A DNA stretch of 49,242 nucleotides. It comes from an uncultured Omnitrophica bacterium (lineage in GTDB: Bacteria; Omnitrophota; Gorgyraeia; JACQQV01). The DNA lies in assembly GCA_947085655.1 (NCBI GenBank), contig CAMTXH010000004.1, forward strand, positions 1-49,242, given 5' to 3'. Within the stretch, counting starts at the first letter, position 1. Each line of letters starts with the position of its first letter. Made by a program: the position numbers and the translations under genes. A model generated the notes under the pieces. That model had not been told where the DNA came from, did no database searches, and saw only the letters and a program-made list of their open reading frames with translations. Of this stretch, positions 3,596 through 49,242 are shown one piece after another.

Positions 3596-5140
3596 TATTT
3601 TTATTCCTTCCTTGCCAAGGGTTTCGTAGGAGAGGCCGCGGAAGGCCGGGATAGCGCCTGCAAGGGCCGAAAAAATCGACTCCGGAGTCCCGGCCGCGAC
3701 CGGTTTCCCCATTTTCTCCGAAAGCCGCCTCAGGATCTCTGCATCCGGCAAAGATGCCCCAAGCGGCTCGAGTGCTTTCCAGAACCGCTGAACCCTTCCG
3801 GCATGATTCGTAAAGGTTCCCTCTTTCTCCGCATAGGTGGCGCTCGGAAGGACAAAGTGTGCTTTGGAGACAGTGCTATTACGGTTACTTCCCTGGAAAA
3901 TAAGAAGTTCGAGTTTATCCGTAAGATTTTTTCCGTTGAAAAGGGCCTCCACATCCTGCCCGAAGGCGTACATGCCTTTAATGGTTCTCTTTTCGATTCC
4001 TTCCATTAATTTTTGGGGTGAGATTTTCGAAAAACCGATTGCCTCCGCTCCGCGGGTATTCGGATTCTTGTCCGATTTGATCAGGAAGTCATCCTCATCC
4101 CCGGGCGGATTGGGACTTAAAAGGGCGACCTGCCTCAATCCGAGGGACTCAAAAAATTTCTTCGCAACAAATAGTTCCTCATTGGCGAGTTGAGGCGAAA
4201 CTAAAACCGAAAAAGCCTCTTTTCCCCGTTTTTCAAAGAAGGCGTTAAGAGCGCCGGCCGTCTGCCCGAGGAGATCTTCCCAATCCGCCTCGAGGAGTCT
4301 CTCTCTATCAATGAATTTGTAACCGTAGCGGCCGGCATCGCACATCCACCACTGGTTCACCTCTTTGTTGAAACGGGGCTTGAGGCGCATCACCCGCTCC
4401 CCCTTCGCATGATGCGGACGGTCCTTGTTCACATGAATCTGGATGTTGCACCCCTGACTGCAGCCGTTACAGACCGAATCGGCCGATTCCAGATACCAGA
4501 CCCGGCATTTGAACCGGAAATCCCGGTCGGTGAGCGCCCCCACCGGGCAGATATCCACCACATTTCCGGAATAGGGGTTGTCGAATTCCTTGCCCGGATA
4601 AATCCCGATTTCGGAATGATCCCCACGGTCAAAAATCCCGAGTTCGTGCGATTTTGAAATCTCGTCGGTGAAGCGGACGCAGCGGGAGCAGAGAATGCAC
4701 CGTTCGGAATCGAGCGCCACATTCGGGCCGATCGGTGCCGCCTTGAAATGCTTTTTGACTTTTTGTTCGTTGAATTTCGGGTTGTAGAGCCCGTACTCCA
4801 TGTAGTAATCCTGGAGCCAGCACTCCCCCGCCTGATCGCAGACCGGACAATCGAGGGGATGATTGATCAAAAGAAATTCAAGAACCGCCTCGCGGAGCTT
4901 TCCGACCTCTTCGCTTGAGGCATCAATAACCATCCCGTCCTGACAAAGGGTTTGGCAGGCGATAATCGGCTTCGGGGACTTTTCCATCTTCACCAGACAC
5001 ATCCGGCAGTTCCCGGCGATCGAGAGGCCCGGGTGGTAGCAATAATAAGGAATGGCGATGCCGAGTTTTTCGGCTGCCTGGATGAGGTTGGTGCCCGGTT
5101 CTACCGTAATACTTTTTCCGTCAATCGTAAGTGTTGGCAT
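3593..5140 (-). CDS. nuoG: NADH-quinone oxidoreductase subunit G, short 515-aa form
   Basis: CYHPGLSIAGNCRMC, HPLDCPVCDQAGEC, CILCSRC...CPVGAL, CNGCSQGC...C; start at ATG 5140 (MPTLTIDG) with AGAGGA upstream. Confidence 0.93.
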   Translation of the reverse strand: MPTLTIDGKSITVEPGTNLIQAAEKLGIAIPYYCYHPGLSIAGNCRMCLVKMEKSPKPIIACQTLCQDGMVIDASSEEVGKLREAVLEFLLINHPLDCPVCDQAGECWLQDYYMEYGLYNPKFNEQKVKKHFKAAPIGPNVALDSERCILCSRCVRFTDEISKSHELGIFDRGDHSEIGIYPGKEFDNPYSGNVVDICPVGALTDRDFRFKCRVWYLESADSVCNGCSQGCNIQIHVNKDRPHHAKGERVMRLKPRFNKEVNQWWMCDAGRYGYKFIDRERLLEADWEDLLGQTAGALNAFFEKRGKEAFSVLVSPQLANEELFVAKKFFESLGLRQVALLSPNPPGDEDDFLIKSDKNPNTRGAEAIGFSKISPQKLMEGIEKRTIKGMYAFGQDVEALFNGKNLTDKLELLIFQGSNRNSTVSKAHFVLPSATYAEKEGTFTNHAGRVQRFWKALEPLGASLPDAEILRRLSEKMGKPVAAGTPESIFSALAGAIPAFRGLSYETLGKEGIKI

Positions 5141-5152
5141 TGTACGTCCTCT

Positions 5153-5240
5153 GCCTCGGGGTCCTGCCGCGGCGACTTTCCCGCCATGCTCGCTCCCGCT
5201 GCGCCTGGCGGGAGCCCTTGTCGCCGCGTCACCCCTCGGC
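5153..5240 (-). ncRNA. Conserved structured element (putative RNA), copy 1
   Basis: GCCGAGGGGTGAC...AGGGCTCCC...GGGA...GGCAGGACCCCGAGGC shared with 47250-47342; inner stems covary between copies. Confidence 0.6.
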
Positions 5241-7037
5241 AAATACCGATTGAGTGCTCTTCAGCTCACATCTACCTGATTCGATATGATGTACAAATTC
5301 TTCCCGGAATTTAACCGGGTAGCTGGAAAAGGGCATCGCTGCGCCGTCGGCAAAGGCACAGATGGTGTTTCCGGCCATGTTGGAGGCGATGTGGAGGAGT
5401 GTGTCCAGATCCTCCATCCTCCCTTTTCCCTCGTAAATCCGCTTGACCACTTTATAGTACCAGCCGGTCCCCTCCCGGCAGGGAGAACATTGACCGCATG
5501 ACTCATGCGCAAAAAAGCGGGCCGTCACCAAAAGAGCCTCCACCATGCAGACCGTCTCATCCATCACGATGATGCCGGCCGAGCCAAGCATCGTCTTTAC
5601 CTTCTTAAGCGACTCGTAATCAAGGCCGACCTCAATCTCATCCGCTTTTAGGACCGCGGCCGACATCCCTCCCGGCACCACCGCCTTCAAAAGCCGCCCT
5701 TCCCGAATGCCCCCCGCATATCGGAAAATAAGATCCTTAAGGGAAGTTCCCATCGGGAGTTCATAAATCCCCGGACGTCCCACGTGGCCGCTGACGCTAT
5801 AAAGATGCGTTCCCCCGTTTTTCTCGCACCCCAAATCCGAAAAAAACTTCCCTCCCTTTTCAACGATGGTCGGAAGACAGGCAAGCGTCTCGACATTGTT
5901 GATAATCGTGGGGCACTGAAAAAGACCCACAATCGCCGGAAAAGGAGGCTTGAGGCGCGGGAACCCTTTCTTTCCTTCCAGGGATTCAAGGAGCGCTGTC
6001 TCTTCCCCGCAGATATAGGCCCCGGCGCCGAGGTGGATGAGGATCTCCAGGTCAAAACCGGTTCCAAAAATATTTTTTCCCAAAACCCCTTTCGAATACG
6101 CCTCATCCACCGCCTGTTGAAGAATCCGGGCCGGCTGCACATACTCCCCCCGGATATAAACATACGCCTTATGGCTTTGAATCGCATAACAGGTGATTAA
6201 AATTCCTTCGATTAAAAGGTGCGGGTCCCGCTCAAGAATATACCGGTCTTTAAAAGTCCCCGGCTCACCCTCATCTGCATTCACGGCAAGATAAACCGGT
6301 TTTTTTCGATCCTTCGGGAGGAATCCCCATTTCATTCCGGCCGGGAACCCGGCGCCGCCGAACCCCCGGAGGTTGGAGGTCTTTACCTCCTCCACAATTT
6401 GTTCCGGCTTCATGGTTTTGAGTGCCTTCTCTGCCGCTTTGTAACCGCCTCCCTTTAAGTAGGTCTCGATTTTGATAGAATCTTTCACCCGGAACCGTTT
6501 GGAAAGAATCGGCTCGCGAAGGGGGCTTTCAATCGCCGCCTCATCCGGTTCCCCCACCCGCTTCCCGGTGTATTGATCCAAAATTTGATCCACTTTCTCC
6601 TTCGTGAGGAATCCGTAATAGTCATCCCCCACTTGCATCATCGGGGCAATTTCACAGGCGCAGAGACACTCAACGCTATCCAGACGGAACTTCCCGTCTG
6701 GCGTACTTTCTCCGACGTCGATTCCGAGTTTCTCTTTGACGTAATCGAGGATTCCGTCTCCGCCGAGGAGATTGCAACTTAAGTTCCGGCAGGCCCGGAT
6801 CGGGGTCTTGCCGCACGGTTTTTTTTCGTAAAGGGTGTAGAAACTTGTCGCCTCCCGAACCTTTACAATCGGAAGGTCGAGCGCTTCTGCAACCGTCTCC
6901 TCGACATCGGGTGAGATGTAACCGTTCTGCTCCTGGGCAAGATGGAGCACCGGAAGCATCGCCGCCTGCCGGGTCTCATACTGTTTGAGAATCTCTTTGA
7001 TTTTTTTCTGGTTTTCGGTGCTGAAGACAAACGGCAT
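5229..7037 (-). CDS. nuoEF: Fused NADH-quinone oxidoreductase subunits E and F
   Basis: N-terminal NuoE (CRNLSC...CLCAC...APMM) is continuous with NuoF (NADEGEPGTFKDR, GAGAYICGEETAL, ESCGQCSPCREG, TICAF); start at ATG 7037, just after the nuoD stop. Confidence 0.93.
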   Translation of the reverse strand: MPFVFSTENQKKIKEILKQYETRQAAMLPVLHLAQEQNGYISPDVEETVAEALDLPIVKVREATSFYTLYEKKPCGKTPIRACRNLSCNLLGGDGILDYVKEKLGIDVGESTPDGKFRLDSVECLCACEIAPMMQVGDDYYGFLTKEKVDQILDQYTGKRVGEPDEAAIESPLREPILSKRFRVKDSIKIETYLKGGGYKAAEKALKTMKPEQIVEEVKTSNLRGFGGAGFPAGMKWGFLPKDRKKPVYLAVNADEGEPGTFKDRYILERDPHLLIEGILITCYAIQSHKAYVYIRGEYVQPARILQQAVDEAYSKGVLGKNIFGTGFDLEILIHLGAGAYICGEETALLESLEGKKGFPRLKPPFPAIVGLFQCPTIINNVETLACLPTIVEKGGKFFSDLGCEKNGGTHLYSVSGHVGRPGIYELPMGTSLKDLIFRYAGGIREGRLLKAVVPGGMSAAVLKADEIEVGLDYESLKKVKTMLGSAGIIVMDETVCMVEALLVTARFFAHESCGQCSPCREGTGWYYKVVKRIYEGKGRMEDLDTLLHIASNMAGNTICAFADGAAMPFSSYPVKFREEFVHHIESGRCELKSTQSVFAEG

Positions 7038-7038
7038 T

Positions 7039-8397
7039 TTAGCGGTCGAGTTCTCCTGCAATCATGTTGACAGAGCCAAAGGTTGGGACAATATCGGCCA
7101 TCATACCGCCGATAAGGAGGGCCGGGAGGGCGTTCATGATCGGAAAACAGGGCGGGCGGACCCGGACGCGGTAGGGTCGGTCCGAACCGTTACTCACCAC
7201 ATAAAAGCCAAGTTCCCCGTTCGCCCCTTCCACCGCCTGATACGCTTCTCCTTTGGGCGGCCGGATCCCATGCCCCACCATCACCAATTTGAAATGGTCC
7301 ATCAGTCCCTCGATATTGCCGTAGGTGTCTTCCTTCGGGGGGAGAACAATCTTTTTCTCCGGCGCATTGATAAGAGGATGGCGGTCTCCGCTTGTTCCCT
7401 CAAGCGTCGGGTCCATCCGGACCGTTTTCTGTTTGAATCCGGCGGTCCGGCCCATCTTTGCTTCATCCACCATGAAATCGGCCGGAATTTCATTGCCCCG
7501 CTCGTCCACCATGACCGCCCCGCCCGGGATCTTGGAGAATGCCTGTTCCACAATCCGCATACTCTGCTCCATCTCCTCCATCCGGACCAGGTACCGGTCG
7601 AGATTATCCCCTCCCTCGGCGATCGGGATATCAAAATCGAATTGGTCATAGACAAGATACGGCTGACTCCTCCGGACATCGTAATCCACCCCGGTCGCCC
7701 GGAGGAAAGGACCCGTGATCCCGTACGAGACGGCATCCTCTTTGGAAATGACCCCAACCCCTTTCATCCGGTCGACGAAAATCCGGTTCCGGGTGAGGAG
7801 TTTGTCCACTTCTTTCAAAATGCTCCGGACTTCTTTAAAGGTTGGGGCGACTTTTTCCTTGAACCCCTCTGGCAAATCCGCCTTCACTCCTCCGACCCGG
7901 CTATAGGAGATGGTGAGTCGCGCGCCTGTGACCGCTTCTACCAGCTCCCACAAAAACTCCCGCGCCTTGATCATATAAAGGAAGACGGTAAAAGCACCCA
8001 GTTCCATGGCGGAAGCGCCGATACAGGTCAGGTGGTCCGTGATCCGGGAGATTTCGCTCATGATGACGCGTATATAGTCGCACCGCTCCGTCGTTTCGAT
8101 GCCGAGAAGTTTTTCAACCGCCATGCAGTAGCCGACATTGTTGATAAGAGGGGAAACATAATTGAGCCGGTCGGTATAAGGAATGGCATTGTTGTAGGGA
8201 CCGACCTCGCACATCTTCTCGAATCCGCGGTGGAGGTATCCGATCTCCGCATCCGCGCCGGTGACCGTTTCCCCGTCGAGTTCCACGACGATCCGGATGA
8301 CGCCATGCATCGCCGGATGACTCGGACCGACGTTTAAAAGAAGGGTGCGTGTCTCGGCTTTTCCTGTTCTCTGAATTTCTTCCGCTAATTTTTCCAT
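7039..8397 (-). CDS. nuoD: NADH-quinone oxidoreductase subunit D (copy 1)
   Basis: GPSHPAMHG, GYLHRGFEK, DRLNY, C-terminal GELDR; no NiFe CxxC motifs. Confidence 0.96.
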   Translation of the reverse strand: MEKLAEEIQRTGKAETRTLLLNVGPSHPAMHGVIRIVVELDGETVTGADAEIGYLHRGFEKMCEVGPYNNAIPYTDRLNYVSPLINNVGYCMAVEKLLGIETTERCDYIRVIMSEISRITDHLTCIGASAMELGAFTVFLYMIKAREFLWELVEAVTGARLTISYSRVGGVKADLPEGFKEKVAPTFKEVRSILKEVDKLLTRNRIFVDRMKGVGVISKEDAVSYGITGPFLRATGVDYDVRRSQPYLVYDQFDFDIPIAEGGDNLDRYLVRMEEMEQSMRIVEQAFSKIPGGAVMVDERGNEIPADFMVDEAKMGRTAGFKQKTVRMDPTLEGTSGDRHPLINAPEKKIVLPPKEDTYGNIEGLMDHFKLVMVGHGIRPPKGEAYQAVEGANGELGFYVVSNGSDRPYRVRVRPPCFPIMNALPALLIGGMMADIVPTFGSVNMIAGELDR

Positions 8398-43788: not shown

Positions 43789-46700
43789 ATGTCTGACAAA
43801 CTCGCTCTGAAGGAAAAAATTTCCTCAAAAAAACCGGCCGCGCATCAACCAACCCCTATTAAAGGAAGAAAAACGACTTCTCCCGGCCTTTCACTTTCCC
43901 GGAAATTCACGCGGCCCGGTGTCAATCCCCTTGAGGAAGTGAAATATGTCAAGCGCTCCTCCGTAATTGCCAATCCGGACGGCTCGGTGGTCTTTGAGAT
44001 GAAGGAGGTGGAGGTTCCCGATTTCTGGTCACAGTTGGCAACCGATATTGCCGCCTCCAAATATTTCCGGAAGTGCGGTGTTCCGGAGGTAGGACGGGAA
44101 ACAAGTGTGCGTCAACTCGTGCACCGCGTGGCCCACACGCTCCGGCTGGGAGGGGAGTGGCTCGGCGGTTACTTCAAAACCAAGGAGGATGCGGAAACCT
44201 TTGAGGCGGAACTGGCCCATCTTCTCCTCCATCAGAAAGGGGCATTCAACTCCCCGGTCTGGTTCAACTGCGGACTCTGGCATTCCTACCAGATTACCGG
44301 AAGCGGGGGGAACTGGGTCTGGAACCCGAAGAGCGGCCAGATCGAGGAGACGAAAGACTCTTACAGCCGTCCCCAGTGCTCCGCCTGCTTTATCCAGTCG
44401 GTTGAGGATGACCTGATGTCGATTTTTAACCTGGTTAAAAGCGAGGCAAAACTCTTTAAATTCGGGTCGGGGACCGGTTCGAACTTCTCGCGGCTCAGGG
44501 GAAAGCAGGAAAAACTCTCCGGAGGAGGAACTTCTTCGGGGCTCATGTCCTTCCTGGAAGTCCTGGATAAAGGTGCCGGAGCCACCAAATCGGGCGGCAC
44601 CACCCGGCGGGCCGCCAAAATGGTCTGTCTGGACATGGACCACCCGGAGATCGTTGATTTTATCAACTGGAAGGTCAGGGAGGAGAAAAAAGCCAAAGCC
44701 CTGATCGAGGCCGGCTATCCGGCTGACTTTAACGGCGAGGCGTACAAAACGATCTCCGGGCAAAATTCCAACAATTCCGTCCGGGTGACGGATGCATTCA
44801 TGGAAGCGGTCCAAAAAGGCGATAAATGGGAGACCCGTTTCCGAACGACCGGCGAAGTCTGCGAAACCTTTGAGGCGCGGAATCTCTTCCGGCAGATTTC
44901 AGAGGCGGCCTGGAACTGTGCCGACCCGGGCATCCAGTACGATACCACCATCAACAACTGGCACAAGACTCCGAATACAGATCGGATTTATGCGTCTAAC
45001 CCGTGCTCGGAATTCATGTACATGGACGACACCGCCTGCAACCTCGCTTCAATCAATTTAATGAAATTCTTAAGGGAAGACGGGTCCTTTGACATCGAGG
45101 GGTACCGTCATGCCTGCCGGATTTTTATCATTGCCCAGGAGATCATCGTCGATTTCGCCTCCTATCCCACTAAAAAGATCGCCCAGAATAGCCACGATTA
45201 CCGCCCGCTCGGGCTTGGCTACGCCAATTTGGGAACGCTCCTCATGGTGAGCAGCATTCCTTATGATTCGGATCGGGCCCGTGCCATTTCAGAGGCGCTG
45301 ACCGCCATCATGTGCGGACAGGCGTACCGGACTTCCGCAGAAATCGCATTTCAAAAAGGACCCTTCCCCGGCTTTGCGAAAAACCGGGAACCGATGCTCA
45401 AAGTCATCGGGATGCACCGAGAGTGCGCTTACCGGATTAACCCCTCTGCCTGCCCGGAGGAACTGTTGAAGGCGGCGCGTCAGGATTGGGATGAGGCGCT
45501 TCGTCTGGGCAAACAGCATGGCTACCGGAACGCCCAGACCACGGTGATTGCCCCAACCGGGACTATCGGGCTTTTGATGGATTGCGATACCACCGGTGTG
45601 GAGCCCGATTTTGCCCTTGTCAAATTCAAAAAGCTTGCCGGAGGCGGGTATTTCAAAATCGTAAACCAATCGGTTCCAAAGGCACTCCAGCGGCTCCATT
45701 ATTCAGACGAGGAAATCCGGGACATCCTCACCTATGTCAACGGAACGCTGACGCTGGAAAAAGCCCCCTATGTCAACTCCCAGACCCTGAAAGCAAAGGG
45801 GCTGACGGACGAAGACCTTAACAAGATTGAGAAAACCCTTCCTTCGGTCTTTGAGCTCCCTTACGCGTTCACCGTTTGGACGTTGGGTGAGACGACGATG
45901 AAGCGTCTCGGGGTCCCGTCCGAAACGTACAACCGGTTCGACTTTAATCTCCTCAAATACCTTGGATTTTCCCTGGAGCAGATTGAGGCGGCCAACCAGG
46001 TCATCTGCGGGCGGATGACCGTGGAAGAGGCGCCCCACCTCCGGGAAGAACACCTGCCGGTCTTTGACTGCGCCAACCGGTGCGGGAAATACGGAAAGCG
46101 CTACATCGCCCCGATGGGTCATGTCAAAATGATGGCCTCTGTCCAAAAGTTCATCTGCGGGGCGATTTCCAAAACGGTGAATCTCCCGAGCCATGCCACC
46201 GTCGAGGACATTGAGCAAATTTACGTCGAGGGGTGGAAGCTGGGGCTCAAGGCGATCGCTCTTTACCGGGACGGGTGCAAATCCTCCCAGCCGCTCAACA
46301 CAAGCGGCGAAAGTCTCAAAGACGAGACAAAGAAAGAACCGAAAGGCGAGCCGTTTTCTCCCCAGCGAAAGCGTCTCCCGAAGAAACGGAGCGGCTGGAC
46401 CCAGGAAGCAAAGGTCGGCGGCCATAAGATCTATTTGAGAACCGGCGAGTACGAAGACGGAAAACTCGGCGAAATCTTTGTCGATATGCACAAAGAGGGG
46501 GCGACGCTCCGTTCCATCATGAACTGCTTTGCGATTGCGGTCTCTCTCGGGCTTCAGTACGGTGTGCCGCTGGAGGAGTACGTCAATATCTTCACCCACC
46601 AGAAGTTTGAGCCGCAGGGTCCGGTGGACCACCCGAACATCAAACATGCAACGAGTATCGTGGACTTTATGTTCCGGTTATTGGCCATGGAGTACCTTGA

Positions 46701-47007
46701 CCGGACCGATTTTGTCCATGTGAAGCCGGAGAAAAAGGAAATCCAAAAACCGGACGCCGAGAAAATAAAAGAGGAAGGAAACGGCAATCTCGAGGCCTTT
46801 GACAACGGACAGTTGACCGCACAAGATGCCGTCGAGGAACGGCTGCATGTCCGCGAAGAGGCTCTCCTTCCCGCTTCCGGCATGGAAGACCAGATGTCCC
46901 AACTGATGGGGGATGCGCCATTCTGCTCGGAATGCGGTCACCTCACCGTCCGGAATGGCGCATGTTACAAATGCTTAAACTGCGGCAACTCGATGGGGTG
47001 TTCGTAA
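43789..47007 (+). CDS. nrdJ: Adenosylcobalamin-dependent (class II) ribonucleotide reductase
   Basis: FNSPVWFN, CSACFI, ASNPCSE, ACNLAS, IAPTGTIG, GAISKTVN, C-terminal CxxC...CxxC...GCS; GGAGGAG RBS. Confidence 0.96.
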   Translation: MSDKLALKEKISSKKPAAHQPTPIKGRKTTSPGLSLSRKFTRPGVNPLEEVKYVKRSSVIANPDGSVVFEMKEVEVPDFWSQLATDIAASKYFRKCGVPEVGRETSVRQLVHRVAHTLRLGGEWLGGYFKTKEDAETFEAELAHLLLHQKGAFNSPVWFNCGLWHSYQITGSGGNWVWNPKSGQIEETKDSYSRPQCSACFIQSVEDDLMSIFNLVKSEAKLFKFGSGTGSNFSRLRGKQEKLSGGGTSSGLMSFLEVLDKGAGATKSGGTTRRAAKMVCLDMDHPEIVDFINWKVREEKKAKALIEAGYPADFNGEAYKTISGQNSNNSVRVTDAFMEAVQKGDKWETRFRTTGEVCETFEARNLFRQISEAAWNCADPGIQYDTTINNWHKTPNTDRIYASNPCSEFMYMDDTACNLASINLMKFLREDGSFDIEGYRHACRIFIIAQEIIVDFASYPTKKIAQNSHDYRPLGLGYANLGTLLMVSSIPYDSDRARAISEALTAIMCGQAYRTSAEIAFQKGPFPGFAKNREPMLKVIGMHRECAYRINPSACPEELLKAARQDWDEALRLGKQHGYRNAQTTVIAPTGTIGLLMDCDTTGVEPDFALVKFKKLAGGGYFKIVNQSVPKALQRLHYSDEEIRDILTYVNGTLTLEKAPYVNSQTLKAKGLTDEDLNKIEKTLPSVFELPYAFTVWTLGETTMKRLGVPSETYNRFDFNLLKYLGFSLEQIEAANQVICGRMTVEEAPHLREEHLPVFDCANRCGKYGKRYIAPMGHVKMMASVQKFICGAISKTVNLPSHATVEDIEQIYVEGWKLGLKAIALYRDGCKSSQPLNTSGESLKDETKKEPKGEPFSPQRKRLPKKRSGWTQEAKVGGHKIYLRTGEYEDGKLGEIFVDMHKEGATLRSIMNCFAIAVSLGLQYGVPLEEYVNIFTHQKFEPQGPVDHPNIKHATSIVDFMFRLLAMEYLDRTDFVHVKPEKKEIQKPDAEKIKEEGNGNLEAFDNGQLTAQDAVEERLHVREEALLPASGMEDQMSQLMGDAPFCSECGHLTVRNGACYKCLNCGNSMGCS

Positions 47008-47249
47008 TGGACACAGAAGATAAATTGAATGCCGTGTCTTAAGGAGATAGATGCAGAAAAGCGCTGTTTTCAAGAACGATTTTTTAAAGTATCTTACCAG
47101 GAAATAGAGCCTACTTTTCTCCATATTCAAAGTTTAGAAGAGAGATTCTTTTACCTCTACATAAAGAGTGGATCTGCCACTTCTACAACTCAGTAAGGTC
47201 AACGAGACCTAAGACCGAGTAGAAATAGCGGGTGTCGGAGGCGCCAGGG

Positions 47250-47342
47250 GCCGAGGGGTGACACGACCTAGGGCTCCCAAATACGCCTGCAGGCGAAAGC
47301 CGAAGCCGAATTTGGGATAAGGTCATGGCAGGACCCCGAGGC
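47250..47342 (+). ncRNA. Conserved structured element (putative RNA), copy 2
   Basis: Homologous to 5153-5240(-); additional outer stem gcgggt(47228-47233)/acccgc(47369-47374). Confidence 0.6.
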
Positions 47343-47534
47343 GAAAAGCACCCGAGTACCGAGATGGGACCCGCCAGCCCCAAAAAATTTTTTAAAATAA
47401 TTGCAAGAAATCACCGAGTTTTTACGTCATGTATATATGAAGACCATAAAATCTTCGCCTTTCAAAAGGAGGAAGATTTGTTTGAAGAGAGCGATAACTT
47501 CTGGTATGATAGAAAGATAGAGTACATTGACCTT

Positions 47535-48509
47535 ATGAAAAAGGGGGAGGAAAACAACAAAACTCACATATTTTGTAAGAGTTGCGAAAATATGTCGGAG
47601 GTCTCTCCTGATTCAATATCTCTTATCGTTACCTCCCCGCCCTATTGGAACGCAATTGACTACGACCAACACACACAAGATCCTTCAAAATGGTTCAGGA
47701 CACGCAAAGGTTCAGAATACGAGGGGTATCTTGACTGGCTCAAGGCCTGCTTTAGCGAATGTTTCAGAGTCTTGAAGCCTGCCGGTTTTTGTGCCGTTGT
47801 AATCGGCACGGTTCTTTTCAACAAAAGACACTACCCTCTACCTCATCATTTTATATCACTCATGGAAAAAATTGGATACGAATTTCACCAAGACATCATT
47901 TGGTCCAAAGTTACGGGTGGCGTGAAAAGAGCAGGTGTTACTATTCAGTCTCCTTATCCGGGATACTATTATCCGAACATTATGACAGAATACATTTTAA
48001 TTTTTAGAAGACCTTCTAAAGACAGTTGTTACAACGGACGGACTCAAAAAGAGAGGGATGAGAATAAAATTCCGATCGACGATCTATTCAAAAAAGAAGT
48101 AGCGAATAACATCTGGCATATCGCCCCTGTTCCTCCAAATCAGTATAATCACCCCTGTCCTTTCCCGGAAGAAATTCCGTTTCGGCTTATTTCGTTATTC
48201 ACTTATAAGGGAGATGCTGTATTAGATCCTTTTCTTGGAATAGGGTCGACGACAAAAGTCGCAAGGTGGCTTGAGAGAGATTATTACGGCTATGAGATTA
48301 AAGAGGAGTATGTAAGAATTGCGAAAAAACGCTTGAGTGAGCCTTTGAAATTGAGAGATCAGCTCATCGCTGAATATTCAAAATTAAATATAAACAAATC
48401 ATTGAGAATTCCACAAAAACTATTTGATGACATGCTTATAGCAGCCTCCCGCCAAACAACAAGATCGCACCAGAAACACGATCTTGCCCCGCAAGCGACG
48501 CCTAAATAG
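47535..48509 (+). CDS. Beta-class amino-DNA methyltransferase (probably m4C)
   Basis: TSPPY near the N-terminus, HPCPFP, VLDPFLGIGST, GYEI; likely start ATG 47535 because the longer ORF starts inside the structured element. Confidence 0.9.
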   Translation: MKKGEENNKTHIFCKSCENMSEVSPDSISLIVTSPPYWNAIDYDQHTQDPSKWFRTRKGSEYEGYLDWLKACFSECFRVLKPAGFCAVVIGTVLFNKRHYPLPHHFISLMEKIGYEFHQDIIWSKVTGGVKRAGVTIQSPYPGYYYPNIMTEYILIFRRPSKDSCYNGRTQKERDENKIPIDDLFKKEVANNIWHIAPVPPNQYNHPCPFPEEIPFRLISLFTYKGDAVLDPFLGIGSTTKVARWLERDYYGYEIKEEYVRIAKKRLSEPLKLRDQLIAEYSKLNINKSLRIPQKLFDDMLIAASRQTTRSHQKHDLAPQATPK

Positions 48510-48519
48510 GTTGGTTTAT

Positions 48520-49158
48520 TTACTCTAGTACGCGACGCCAATCTACAAATTTTTTGAGGATCCGAAACTGAATTCTACCAAGAATCTCTTTTGCAATCGC
48601 TTCGCTGGCCACTTTCGTCTTCTCGATATCGGCAGATTTGGGTGGAACGCGACAAGGTATGAGGTATTGTGGATTTTCTCTGAGAAAGTCGTCGAGAGGA
48701 GCACGTTTTAATACAAGTGCATCACCCATTGACGTTGTAGCACCTCTCAAAAGTTTTGGGTCAGCATAAGCAATTCCCACGTTAGACAAGATAAAGAGGG
48801 TAGACTCAGACCAAGTTCGAGTTGTGCTTTCACCTAAAGAATTAATGAGTCGAATAGCATCGCGCTTCCCTGTAAATGATCCCTTTACCGAAAAGCCTTC
48901 AACAAATGGTACCTGGATGTCGATACGAGGATTGTGAACACCGACATTCTTTGCTTCTATCCCAGCTGCGCGCATTGCGGCACCTAAAATATGTTCACAT
49001 GCTCCCCCCACAACAAATCTATTTTCATGAACGGTTGTGTCGTACTCCGATAAAAGAATCCCCAATGCTTCCTCTACCTCTTTTTGTAAGGTAGCATCAT
49101 TTTCTAATTTCTGCTTGAAGTTTTTGAAGATTTCGCGTTCACGCTTATATTTAGTCAT
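48520..49158 (-). CDS. Putative type II restriction endonuclease (PD-(D/E)xK-like)
   Basis: Convergent with the MTase; 212 aa; E...RID-x9-SVK arrangement; AT-richer; no family recognised. Confidence 0.55.
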   Translation of the reverse strand: MTKYKREREIFKNFKQKLENDATLQKEVEEALGILLSEYDTTVHENRFVVGGACEHILGAAMRAAGIEAKNVGVHNPRIDIQVPFVEGFSVKGSFTGKRDAIRLINSLGESTTRTWSESTLFILSNVGIAYADPKLLRGATTSMGDALVLKRAPLDDFLRENPQYLIPCRVPPKSADIEKTKVASEAIAKEILGRIQFRILKKFVDWRRVLE

Positions 49159-49242
49159 ATTTCTCTCTTCATACAAGATGATAGGACAACATAATATCAC
49201 AAAGACGCCCTATCAGCAAGATGGCAAGTACCCTACAAATGC

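Follow-up and report, generated by a model that had tools for sequence, protein, structure and literature searches.

Why does a very stable, GC-rich hairpin of about 90 nt sit exactly between the stop codon of a nuoEF fusion gene and the ribosome-binding site (RBS) of a nuoG-like gene in an uncultured Omnitrophota bacterium, and to what class of elements does it belong? The junction lies near one end of the window, by which we mean the whole stretch of 49,242 nt that was analysed, and the window is part of a genome of 1.57 Mb in 27 contigs with 53.5% G+C (G000). An earlier note, made from the sequence alone, had described the element as belonging to a family, either of structured RNAs or of mobile hairpins, that it could not place in any known class, with a second copy near the other end of the window and a base resembling a kink-turn. 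The features at the two loci, in window coordinates, are as follows.

5141-5152, minus strand: spacer AGAGGACGTACA between copy 1 and the ATG of the nuoG-like gene, with the RBS of that gene
5153-5240, minus strand: copy 1, a short form of 88 nt, an unbranched hairpin in sense orientation between the nuoEF fusion gene and the nuoG-like gene
5163-5165, minus strand: the 3-nt AGG bulge of copy 1, within GGC-AGG-ACCCC, its register set by covariation of the neighbouring pair
5229-5231, minus strand: TGA stop codon of the NuoE+NuoF fusion ORF, element-derived, inside GGGGTGAC
43789-47007, plus strand: class II ribonucleotide reductase gene, ending 242 nt upstream of copy 2 (context only)
47228-47375, plus strand: outer layer around copy 2, GCGGGUGUCGG...CCGAGAUGGGACCCGC, an older element of the GAGCGGGUGGCUCGG subtype, now decayed
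47250-47342, plus strand: copy 2, a hairpin of 93 nt, of the same subtype (type A) as copy 1
47325-48509, plus strand: DNA methyltransferase reading frame (PF01555), open from inside copy 2, with the Pfam domain starting at residue 98 (context only)
47330-47332, plus strand: AGG bulge of copy 2, as positioned in its sequence

Re-reading the sequence bears out the description of this pair. Both copies carry the blocks GCCGAGGGGTGAC, AGGGCTCCC, GGGA and GGCAGGACCCCGAGGC in this order from 5′ to 3′ (block forms also written GCCGAGGGGUGAC and AGGGCUCCC), and three inner stems change in compensatory fashion exactly as had been listed: GCGGCGAC:GTCGCCGC in copy 1 stands against GACCT:AGGTC in copy 2, TCCCGCCA:TGGCGGGA against TCCCAAAT:ATTTGGGA, and GC-GGGA-GC against GGC-GAAA-GCC, the third stem being flanked by GCA and GA. 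The predicted minimum free energy is −55.5 kcal/mol for copy 1 (z −5.46) and −41.6 kcal/mol for copy 2 (z −4.22), and for each copy all 200 shuffles folded less well. The complementary strands of copies 1 and 2 are stable too, with −50.8 and −43.9 kcal/mol, respectively. A 16-mer searched with up to three mismatches has four matches in the window against 0.64 expected, and both exact matches are copies 1 and 2. The covariance model used below, R1, was built from seven sequences and scores copy 1 at 59.7 bits (E 1.6e-10) and copy 2 at 94.9 bits (E 5e-19).

The gene context of copy 1 is equally as had been read. The ORF at 5229-7061 encodes a NuoE+NuoF fusion (PF01257 and PF01512) and is closed by the UGA inside GGGGUGAC, so that its final codons, GCC GAG GGG TGA (Ala-Glu-Gly-stop), are element sequence; AGAGGA follows directly 3′ of the element, and the NuoG-like ORF begins at 5140 (ATG 5140-5138, minus strand). 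In a related genome, G002, the nuoF|nuoG junction has no element and nuoF overlaps nuoG. On this comparison, nuoF of the window's genome lost its original terminus to the insertion and received Ala-Glu-Gly-stop from the element.

Copy 2 lies in quite different surroundings. When the region 47195-47395 is folded, positions 47228-47233 pair with 47370-47375, and the outer layer so closed resembles an element of another genome of the class, G001 (L126, plus strand). Copy 2 is a nested insertion: it occupies the tip of a decayed, older element belonging to a different subtype. An open frame for the methyltransferase extends from within copy 2, so the hairpin could belong to the leader of that gene or overlap its start. 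The methyltransferase (N6/N4) and a convergent ORF of 226 amino acids form a gene pair of lower GC content (47325-49200); the convergent ORF has no Pfam match and is possibly a restriction enzyme.

An intrinsic terminator was considered for both copies and set aside, since in neither is the hairpin followed at once by a U-run: copy 1 continues with AGAGGACG and copy 2 with GAAAAGC. A terminator scan of the plus strand over 46900-47600 found none, and among the 78 flank sets listed a U-run follows the hairpin directly at one locus only (L007).

Fold, covariation and the selected strand

More than 110 distinct sequences of the repeat were gathered. An exact two-block pattern is found at 14 sites in reference genomes and 67 sites in metagenome contigs, and has no match in viral contigs. 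Nine of the reference-genome sites are in Omnitrophota, with one each in Patescibacteria (a 784-kb contig), Saccharibacteria, Microthrixaceae (a 1.05-Mb contig), another bacterium and Acidimicrobiia, the last being a match without the fold and probably due to chance. The exact-pattern set comprises 68 distinct sequences in three architectures: in type A, that of the window, P3-P4 is followed by GCA, a hairpin and GA; in type B, P2 carries the motif CGGAG/CGCAG; and in type C the GCA/GA loop is in reversed orientation.

The comparison with Rfam that the earlier note had proposed finds none of the 4227 families of Rfam 15 at the element, and the models compared include ribozymes, the nuoG motif, SRP, 6S and tmRNA. 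The window has no match at gathering score; seven loci at E up to 10 gave only three chance-level snoRNA or lncRNA matches, elsewhere in the loci; and 20 metagenome loci at E up to 1 gave four matches, none at the element (two tRNAs and two matches far below the gathering scores of their families). Full-text literature searches on RNAs and repeats of Omnitrophota and Patescibacteria returned, in the portions of papers that they covered, no description of the repeat. The hairpin repeats are an undescribed family of real copies, multi-copy and patchily distributed, and the assignment to no known class stands.

The repeat unit is an unbranched rod of about 87–93 nt. Its conserved parts are the closing helix GGGU/ACCC; the pairs G-C, N.N and C-G, next to which AGG bulges out of the 3′ strand; a loop rich in G (AGGG) on the 5′ side; and a GCA/GA internal loop, which is found in either orientation. 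Between these parts the helices covary freely. A single hairpin is the predicted fold of 104 of the 116 distinct sense sequences, and the AGG bulge is invariant in all 116. The base 3′ of UG has as its partner the second base of GGCAGG, as A.G in 104 sequences, G.A in nine, and G-C, A-U and G.G in one each (n=116). Because this neighbouring pair covaries, the register of the bulge is G-C / N.N / C-G plus a 3-nt AGG, beyond which come U-A and then the Watson-Crick helix GGG/CCC. As a side observation, the CAGGA in the bulge may be compared, on its sequence, with a CsrA-type GGA site.

Covariation is strong in two alignments, both of which were fitted to the model, a procedure that favours structure, with slid controls and the raw sequences in agreement. 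In 73 distinct rows aligned to the model, standard pairs fill 93.4% of pair cells against 73.2% in shuffles, 26 of the 30 pairs are changed on both sides, and the covariation score is 0.436 against 0.128 in shuffles (none of 500 reached the observed value) and at most 0.075 in the slid controls. The 44 copies found with the model in five genomes, a set free of the bias of the exact pattern, give 92.6% standard pairs against 70.8% and a score of 0.534 against 0.137, and here the outer P1 pairs covary as well. Covariation support thus rises as homologs are added; its loss is what the earlier note had named as the outcome that would speak against its reading, and no such collapse is seen.

The mismatches that are kept within the helices differ between the two strands. 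In paired columns outside P1, there are 41 G.U against 17 A.C, and 72 G.A or A.G against four C.U or U.C, that is, 113 G.A plus G.U against 21 of the mirror types. Since the mismatches are strand-specific in this manner, the given strand is selected as a single strand. Selection on the fold of one strand fits RNA or single-stranded DNA and does not fit a symmetric duplex site.

Copies within and between genomes

A search of the window's genome with R1 finds three full copies. Copies elsewhere in this genome (strand not given) are the following.

C10:34217-34304: third copy, differing from copy 1 by 1 nt, between the ornithine carbamoyltransferase gene and argG
C15:16616-16754: variant copy of 139 nt, preceding the V-ATPase D gene
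C7: 5′ piece of a truncated copy

The third copy and copy 1 have unrelated flanks in spite of their single difference. A few further repeats were noticed at these loci. Inside the AGG bulge of the C15 copy there is a second repeat of about 51 nt (C15:16693-16743, equal to L004:1578-1628), which recurs in the same genome at C8:8609-8647 and C6:4487-4523; in copies of G001 (L166, L168) it is also found in opposite orientation, after the inner-loop GCCAG. At C7:31067-31144 there is a short tandem repeat with units GATCCCGAGGCCACACAGGCCGAGGGGTCAATGAGCCGAGAGGCGGA and the element-end-like motifs CCCGAGGC and GCCGAGGGGT.

Among the 121 genomes of the class, 13 have the element according to R1 (11 of the 96 of good quality). 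The number of copies per genome ranges from 1 to 18, with 18 in G080, nine in G001, nine in G049, seven in G002 and three in the window's genome; four of five other carrier genomes have one or two copies each. In the Microthrixaceae genome, which holds one of the exact-pattern sites (L015), R1 finds no copy at E up to 0.01. The copies of G000, G001 and G002 lie between different gene pairs, at loci that are not syntenic. At the argF|argG junction of G001, another hairpin, of 11 bp, takes the place of the element. A third junction was compared in eight genomes of the family of G080: the element is present in G080 only, one genome has a 0-nt spacer, and six have other palindromic inserts. These inserts in the six sister genomes (junction of L173-L179, upstream of the gene matched by L154:1327-2499) are long, and some have AT-rich arms of short tandem units with two inner hairpins of the form GUCGC-loop-GCGAC; several unrelated families of hairpin inserts seem to share one kind of site.

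In G080, seven of the 18 copies have 100% identical cores of 87 nt (GGGTGAC...GGCAGGACCC). The arms around these identical cores are unrelated to one another and complementary within each copy, over 6–19 bp; two pairs of copies share arms. The element ends are themselves complementary as part of the hairpin, and the flanks of identical cores, within provisional boundaries, are inverted complements of 6–19 bp and not direct repeats; a direct target-site duplication is not visible at the flanks examined. Nesting like that of copy 2 is seen in many metagenome copies, with the same outer motifs recurring, and palindromic local duplications occur within the AGG bulge at three loci (L008, L160, L168). 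Copies land at junctions of stop codon and RBS and at hairpin tips, including those of older copies of the family. Perfect hairpins with stems of at least 11 bp do exist (32 in G000, and four in 55 kb of G080 loci). Were such hairpins the targets, loop remnants might be looked for beside the cores; none are found there, and one sister junction has a 0-nt spacer.

The neighbours are varied housekeeping genes: 131 flanking ORFs were called and 101 assigned with Pfam, and among these 101 there is no transposase, integrase or reverse transcriptase. Over all 76 copies analysed, the orientation relative to neighbouring genes is ++ in 22, -- in 19, -+ in 10 and +- in 4, with 21 one-sided or without neighbours; for the 44 copies of the five genomes the counts are ++ 15, -- 11, -+ 4, +- 7 and one-sided or none 7. 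A family-wide bias towards the sense orientation is therefore absent (++ 22 vs -- 19, and ++ 15 vs -- 11 in the five genomes), although type A copies between co-directional genes lean to sense, about 16 vs 5 by hand count, a weak tendency. Some long forms have -10-like boxes 5–8 nt upstream of their AGCGGG 5′ end. In copy 1, in the C10 and C15 copies and at five other loci (L008, L050, L055, L070, L092), 10–20 nt separate the 3′ end from the start codon that follows. On two metagenome contigs, a pair of elements brackets one small ORF of unknown function (181 aa on L029:847-1723 and 217 aa on L056:501-1569); in one case the two elements are of different types and opposite orientation, and in the other they are identical direct copies.

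Mobile hairpin or functional RNA

Because the element multiplies within genomes and sits at differing loci in relatives, it looks like a small mobile element with an RNA-like fold. We propose, with a probability of roughly 55%, that it is an undescribed, non-autonomous mobile hairpin repeat, distributed in Omnitrophota and sporadic in Patescibacteria, Saccharibacteria and Actinomycetota, whose transcribed copies act passively as intercistronic stem-loops. The evidence that carries this reading is the spread of copy numbers in the richest of the 13 carrier genomes, the near identity of copy 1 and the C10 copy amid unrelated flanks, the empty nuoF|nuoG junction of G002 and the third junction occupied in one of eight genomes, and the identical 87-nt cores with unrelated arms, together with nesting, varied housekeeping neighbours, the other hairpin at the argF|argG junction of G001 and the lack of a family-wide sense bias. 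The strong pairing, the single-hairpin fold and the strand specificity of the mismatches also count in its favour.

As to mechanism, the repeat may move as a single-stranded hairpin, of DNA or possibly of RNA, and a factor supplied in trans would read the conserved AGG-bulge end. The complementary arms, which differ from copy to copy, could form during insertion or later, for example if template switching lengthens the palindrome. We favour this origin, and the palindromic duplications in the AGG bulge point the same way. At the nuo junction, the stem-loop of copy 1 (−55 kcal/mol) might serve passively as a barrier to 3′ exonucleases, as a processing site and as an uncoupler of the two cistrons, besides furnishing the last three codons and the stop of nuoEF. 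Against mobility it must be said that no mobilising enzyme was found for the repeat and no direct target-site duplication is visible, that the one or two copies of many genomes are few for a selfish repeat, that the ends are near-invariant across three phyla, that G.A and G.U mismatches are kept as in a functional RNA, and that type A copies lean to sense and some long forms have -10-like boxes.

Another reading, which we regard as possible rather than probable, is that the repeat is a functional structured RNA module, in which the AGG bulge, the G-rich loop and the GCA/GA loop form a putative site for a protein or the ribosome, the long forms being free-standing small RNA genes and the short forms in operons cis copies that tune stability or translation. 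Selection on one strand with retention of G.A and G.U, strong covariation around an unpaired AGG invariant in 116 of 116 sequences, and end motifs that Omnitrophota share, on long contigs, with Saccharibacteria and Microthrixaceae all fit such a module, as do the one or two copies per genome in four of five genomes tested, the boxes 5–8 nt upstream of AGCGGG, the sense lean of type A operon copies and the 3′ ends 10–20 nt before start codons. It is harder to reconcile with a patchy presence in 13 of 121 genomes beside unrelated genes, and with an antisense orientation to both neighbours that is about as frequent as sense, both family-wide and in G080. Identical cores with unrelated arms, self-nesting, and unrelated palindromic inserts at the same junction in sister genomes likewise speak against it. 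The two may also be combined, in that the conserved core could represent a new class of functional RNA device that propagates itself as a mobile element, its bulged AGG, G-rich loop and flippable GCA/GA loop forming a putative binding or catalytic site kept across at least three bacterial phyla. The long forms would then be independent small RNAs, and the copies in operons would bring the same activity in between cistrons; this too we hold only tentatively.

Could the mobile hairpin instead belong to the REP/REPIN family, moved by a RAYT (Y1) transposase? It has the size of a REPIN hairpin and lies outside genes, its strand-specific features are as for a single-stranded DNA substrate, and Y1 transposase genes are common in the class, being present in 96 of the 121 genomes and in four of the five element-rich ones. 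We nevertheless consider this improbable. The element ends are GCCGAGGGGTGAC...CCCCGAGGC with the core GGGTGAC...CAGGACCC, and the GTAG or CGTC tag is absent at either end. Carriers of the element show no co-occurrence with Y1 genes (nine of 13, by our own reading of the lists, vs 96 of 121 overall), the copy number is low, and in G049 and G080 the element does not closely flank the Y1 genes, the nearest copy being 0.4–1.5 kb away and on one side only. The only Y1_Tnp gene of the window's genome (229 aa, IS200-like/RAYT-like; L141:2115-2940, on C11) has a 49-nt inverted repeat starting AGTAGACGC. That gene is thus bracketed by an unrelated repeat, which has a REP signature of GTAG type and nothing in common with the element.

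Hammerhead and twister motifs are often carried by repeats, and a new self-cleaving ribozyme, with the variable outer stem as a putative sequence-free closing helix, would account for a multi-copy element with a conserved core, a free closing stem, and invariant unpaired purines in two internal loops on either side of a mismatch-holding helix. The lack of any match among the Rfam 15 ribozymes, the folding into a rod that lacks branches, junctions and predicted pseudoknots (104 of 116), and the occurrence in antisense as often as in sense make it very unlikely.

The kink-turn lead of the earlier note, with putative binding by an L7Ae-family protein, does not hold up. A kink-turn combines a 3-nt bulge with sheared G.A and A.G pairs that lie in tandem immediately 3′ of it (G1b.A1n, A2b.G2n), and the repeat does have a 3-nt bulge beside G and A residues as well as, in both window copies, a tandem G.A in the basal helix. 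The lead fails because covariation fixes a helix in which Watson-Crick A-U and C-G pairs, not tandem G.A/A.G, follow the AGG bulge; position 2b would be G instead of A, and the sole mismatch adjoining the bulge is on the side opposite to the one required and is a G-C or A-U pair in some sequences. The basal tandem G.A (P1) lies in a symmetric 2x2 loop that no bulge adjoins and is replaced by Watson-Crick pairs in the genomes G080 and G049 and at three loci (L007, L015, L024), which leaves a kink-turn hardly credible. The GNRA loops and basal G.A pairs that had been noted are indeed present in the window copies, but they are copy-specific and do not define the family (GNRA accounts for 16 of the 130 predicted loops in the 116 distinct sequences). 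Of the earlier reading as a whole, the family and its lack of a known class are retained, and the kink-turn with its L7Ae partner is dropped.

Whichever of the two leading explanations applies, the repeat has consequences for how these genomes are read. Omnitrophota and Patescibacteria have compact genomes, yet they tolerate very stable hairpins of about 90 nt exactly between a stop codon and the next RBS, and one of them rewrites the end of a complex I gene. Strong selection on an asymmetric fold of one strand, ends that are alike across phyla, and identical cores with unrelated arms do not, taken together, match a simple selfish palindrome, and an ordinary small RNA would not show them either. 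If the mover reads the folded single strand, there would be a mechanism of insertion at hairpin tips that is undescribed in the part of the literature our searches covered; if the core is an RNA device, it would be a new and widespread RNA class. In either case, a covariance model of the family would prevent its copies in metagenomes from being misannotated as riboswitches, terminators or small RNA genes.

Comparison with known systems

Several well-known RNAs were considered and rejected. The tmRNA idea arose from GCCGAGGGG and UUCGA-like flanks, but ARAGORN finds no tmRNA at 26 loci and a normal tmRNA lies on C8 of the window's genome; the RNase P RNA, similarly, sits on C22. Selenocysteine insertion or readthrough at the UGA is contradicted by UGG in 11 of 116 sequences and by the fact that most copies are out of frame with the upstream gene.

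The bacterial SRP (4.5S) RNA is present as one copy per genome and has in domain IV a tetraloop helix with an AGG / AGCA symmetric loop. The repeat has no domain IV motif, and the window's genome holds three to four copies of it. An SRP or 6S reading of the long form fails likewise, since that form lacks the domain IV motif and is multi-copy and patchy, and since the Microthrixaceae genome holds both the element and, elsewhere, a canonical SRP RNA (77 bits). The models RF00169, RF01854 and RF00013 have no match in the window's genome. As an observation apart, RF00169 matches none of 13 genomes of the class (G000 and its 12 relatives G001-G012), nor one Patescibacteria and three other Omnitrophota genomes (G401, G403-G405), whereas it does match the Microthrixaceae genome and 12 of 14 controls. 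G000 likewise yields nothing with the large SRP model or with a regular expression for domain IV. The SRP RNA of the class may be too divergent for the RF00169 model.

Integron attC sites have R″/R′ core sites (RYYYAAC ... GTTRRRY) and stand in a cassette array beside intI. In the repeat these core motifs are absent at both ends, the neighbours belong to housekeeping operons, and there is no integrase gene among the 101 flanking ORFs. The nuoG RNA motif of enterobacteria, an Rfam family located upstream of nuoG in the nuo operon, resembles copy 1 in being a conserved structure at this position. Unlike that motif, the repeat has no Rfam match and is also found before argG, the V-ATPase D gene, pyrD and many other genes.

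Further parallels are the Correia elements (CREE/NEMIS) of Neisseria, the ERIC/IRU of enterobacteria and the MITEs of bacteria, which are inserts of about 100–150 nt, co-transcribed as long RNA hairpins. Like them, the repeat inserts between genes and folds as a long hairpin. In contrast to them, it has no fixed terminal inverted repeat beyond GGGU/ACCC and shows no TA or other direct target duplication, its flanks being inverted complements instead of direct repeats.

Finally, the REP and REPIN sequences of E. coli and Pseudomonas, with their RAYTs, are short, non-coding, hairpin-forming repeats outside genes that have spread within the genome (PMC3337134, PMC3733652), and their palindrome carries the end tag GTAG or CGTC (PMC3733652). 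The repeat shares with them its position outside genes, its spread within the genome, strand-specific features and, once transcribed, a stem-loop in the mRNA. It differs in having no end tag and no linked RAYT, and 1–18 copies in place of hundreds. Where a REPIN is a simple doublet of palindromes, the repeat has an asymmetric core with the AGG bulge, the G-rich loop and the GCA/GA loop; its ends are conserved across phyla, and each copy has complementary arms of its own.
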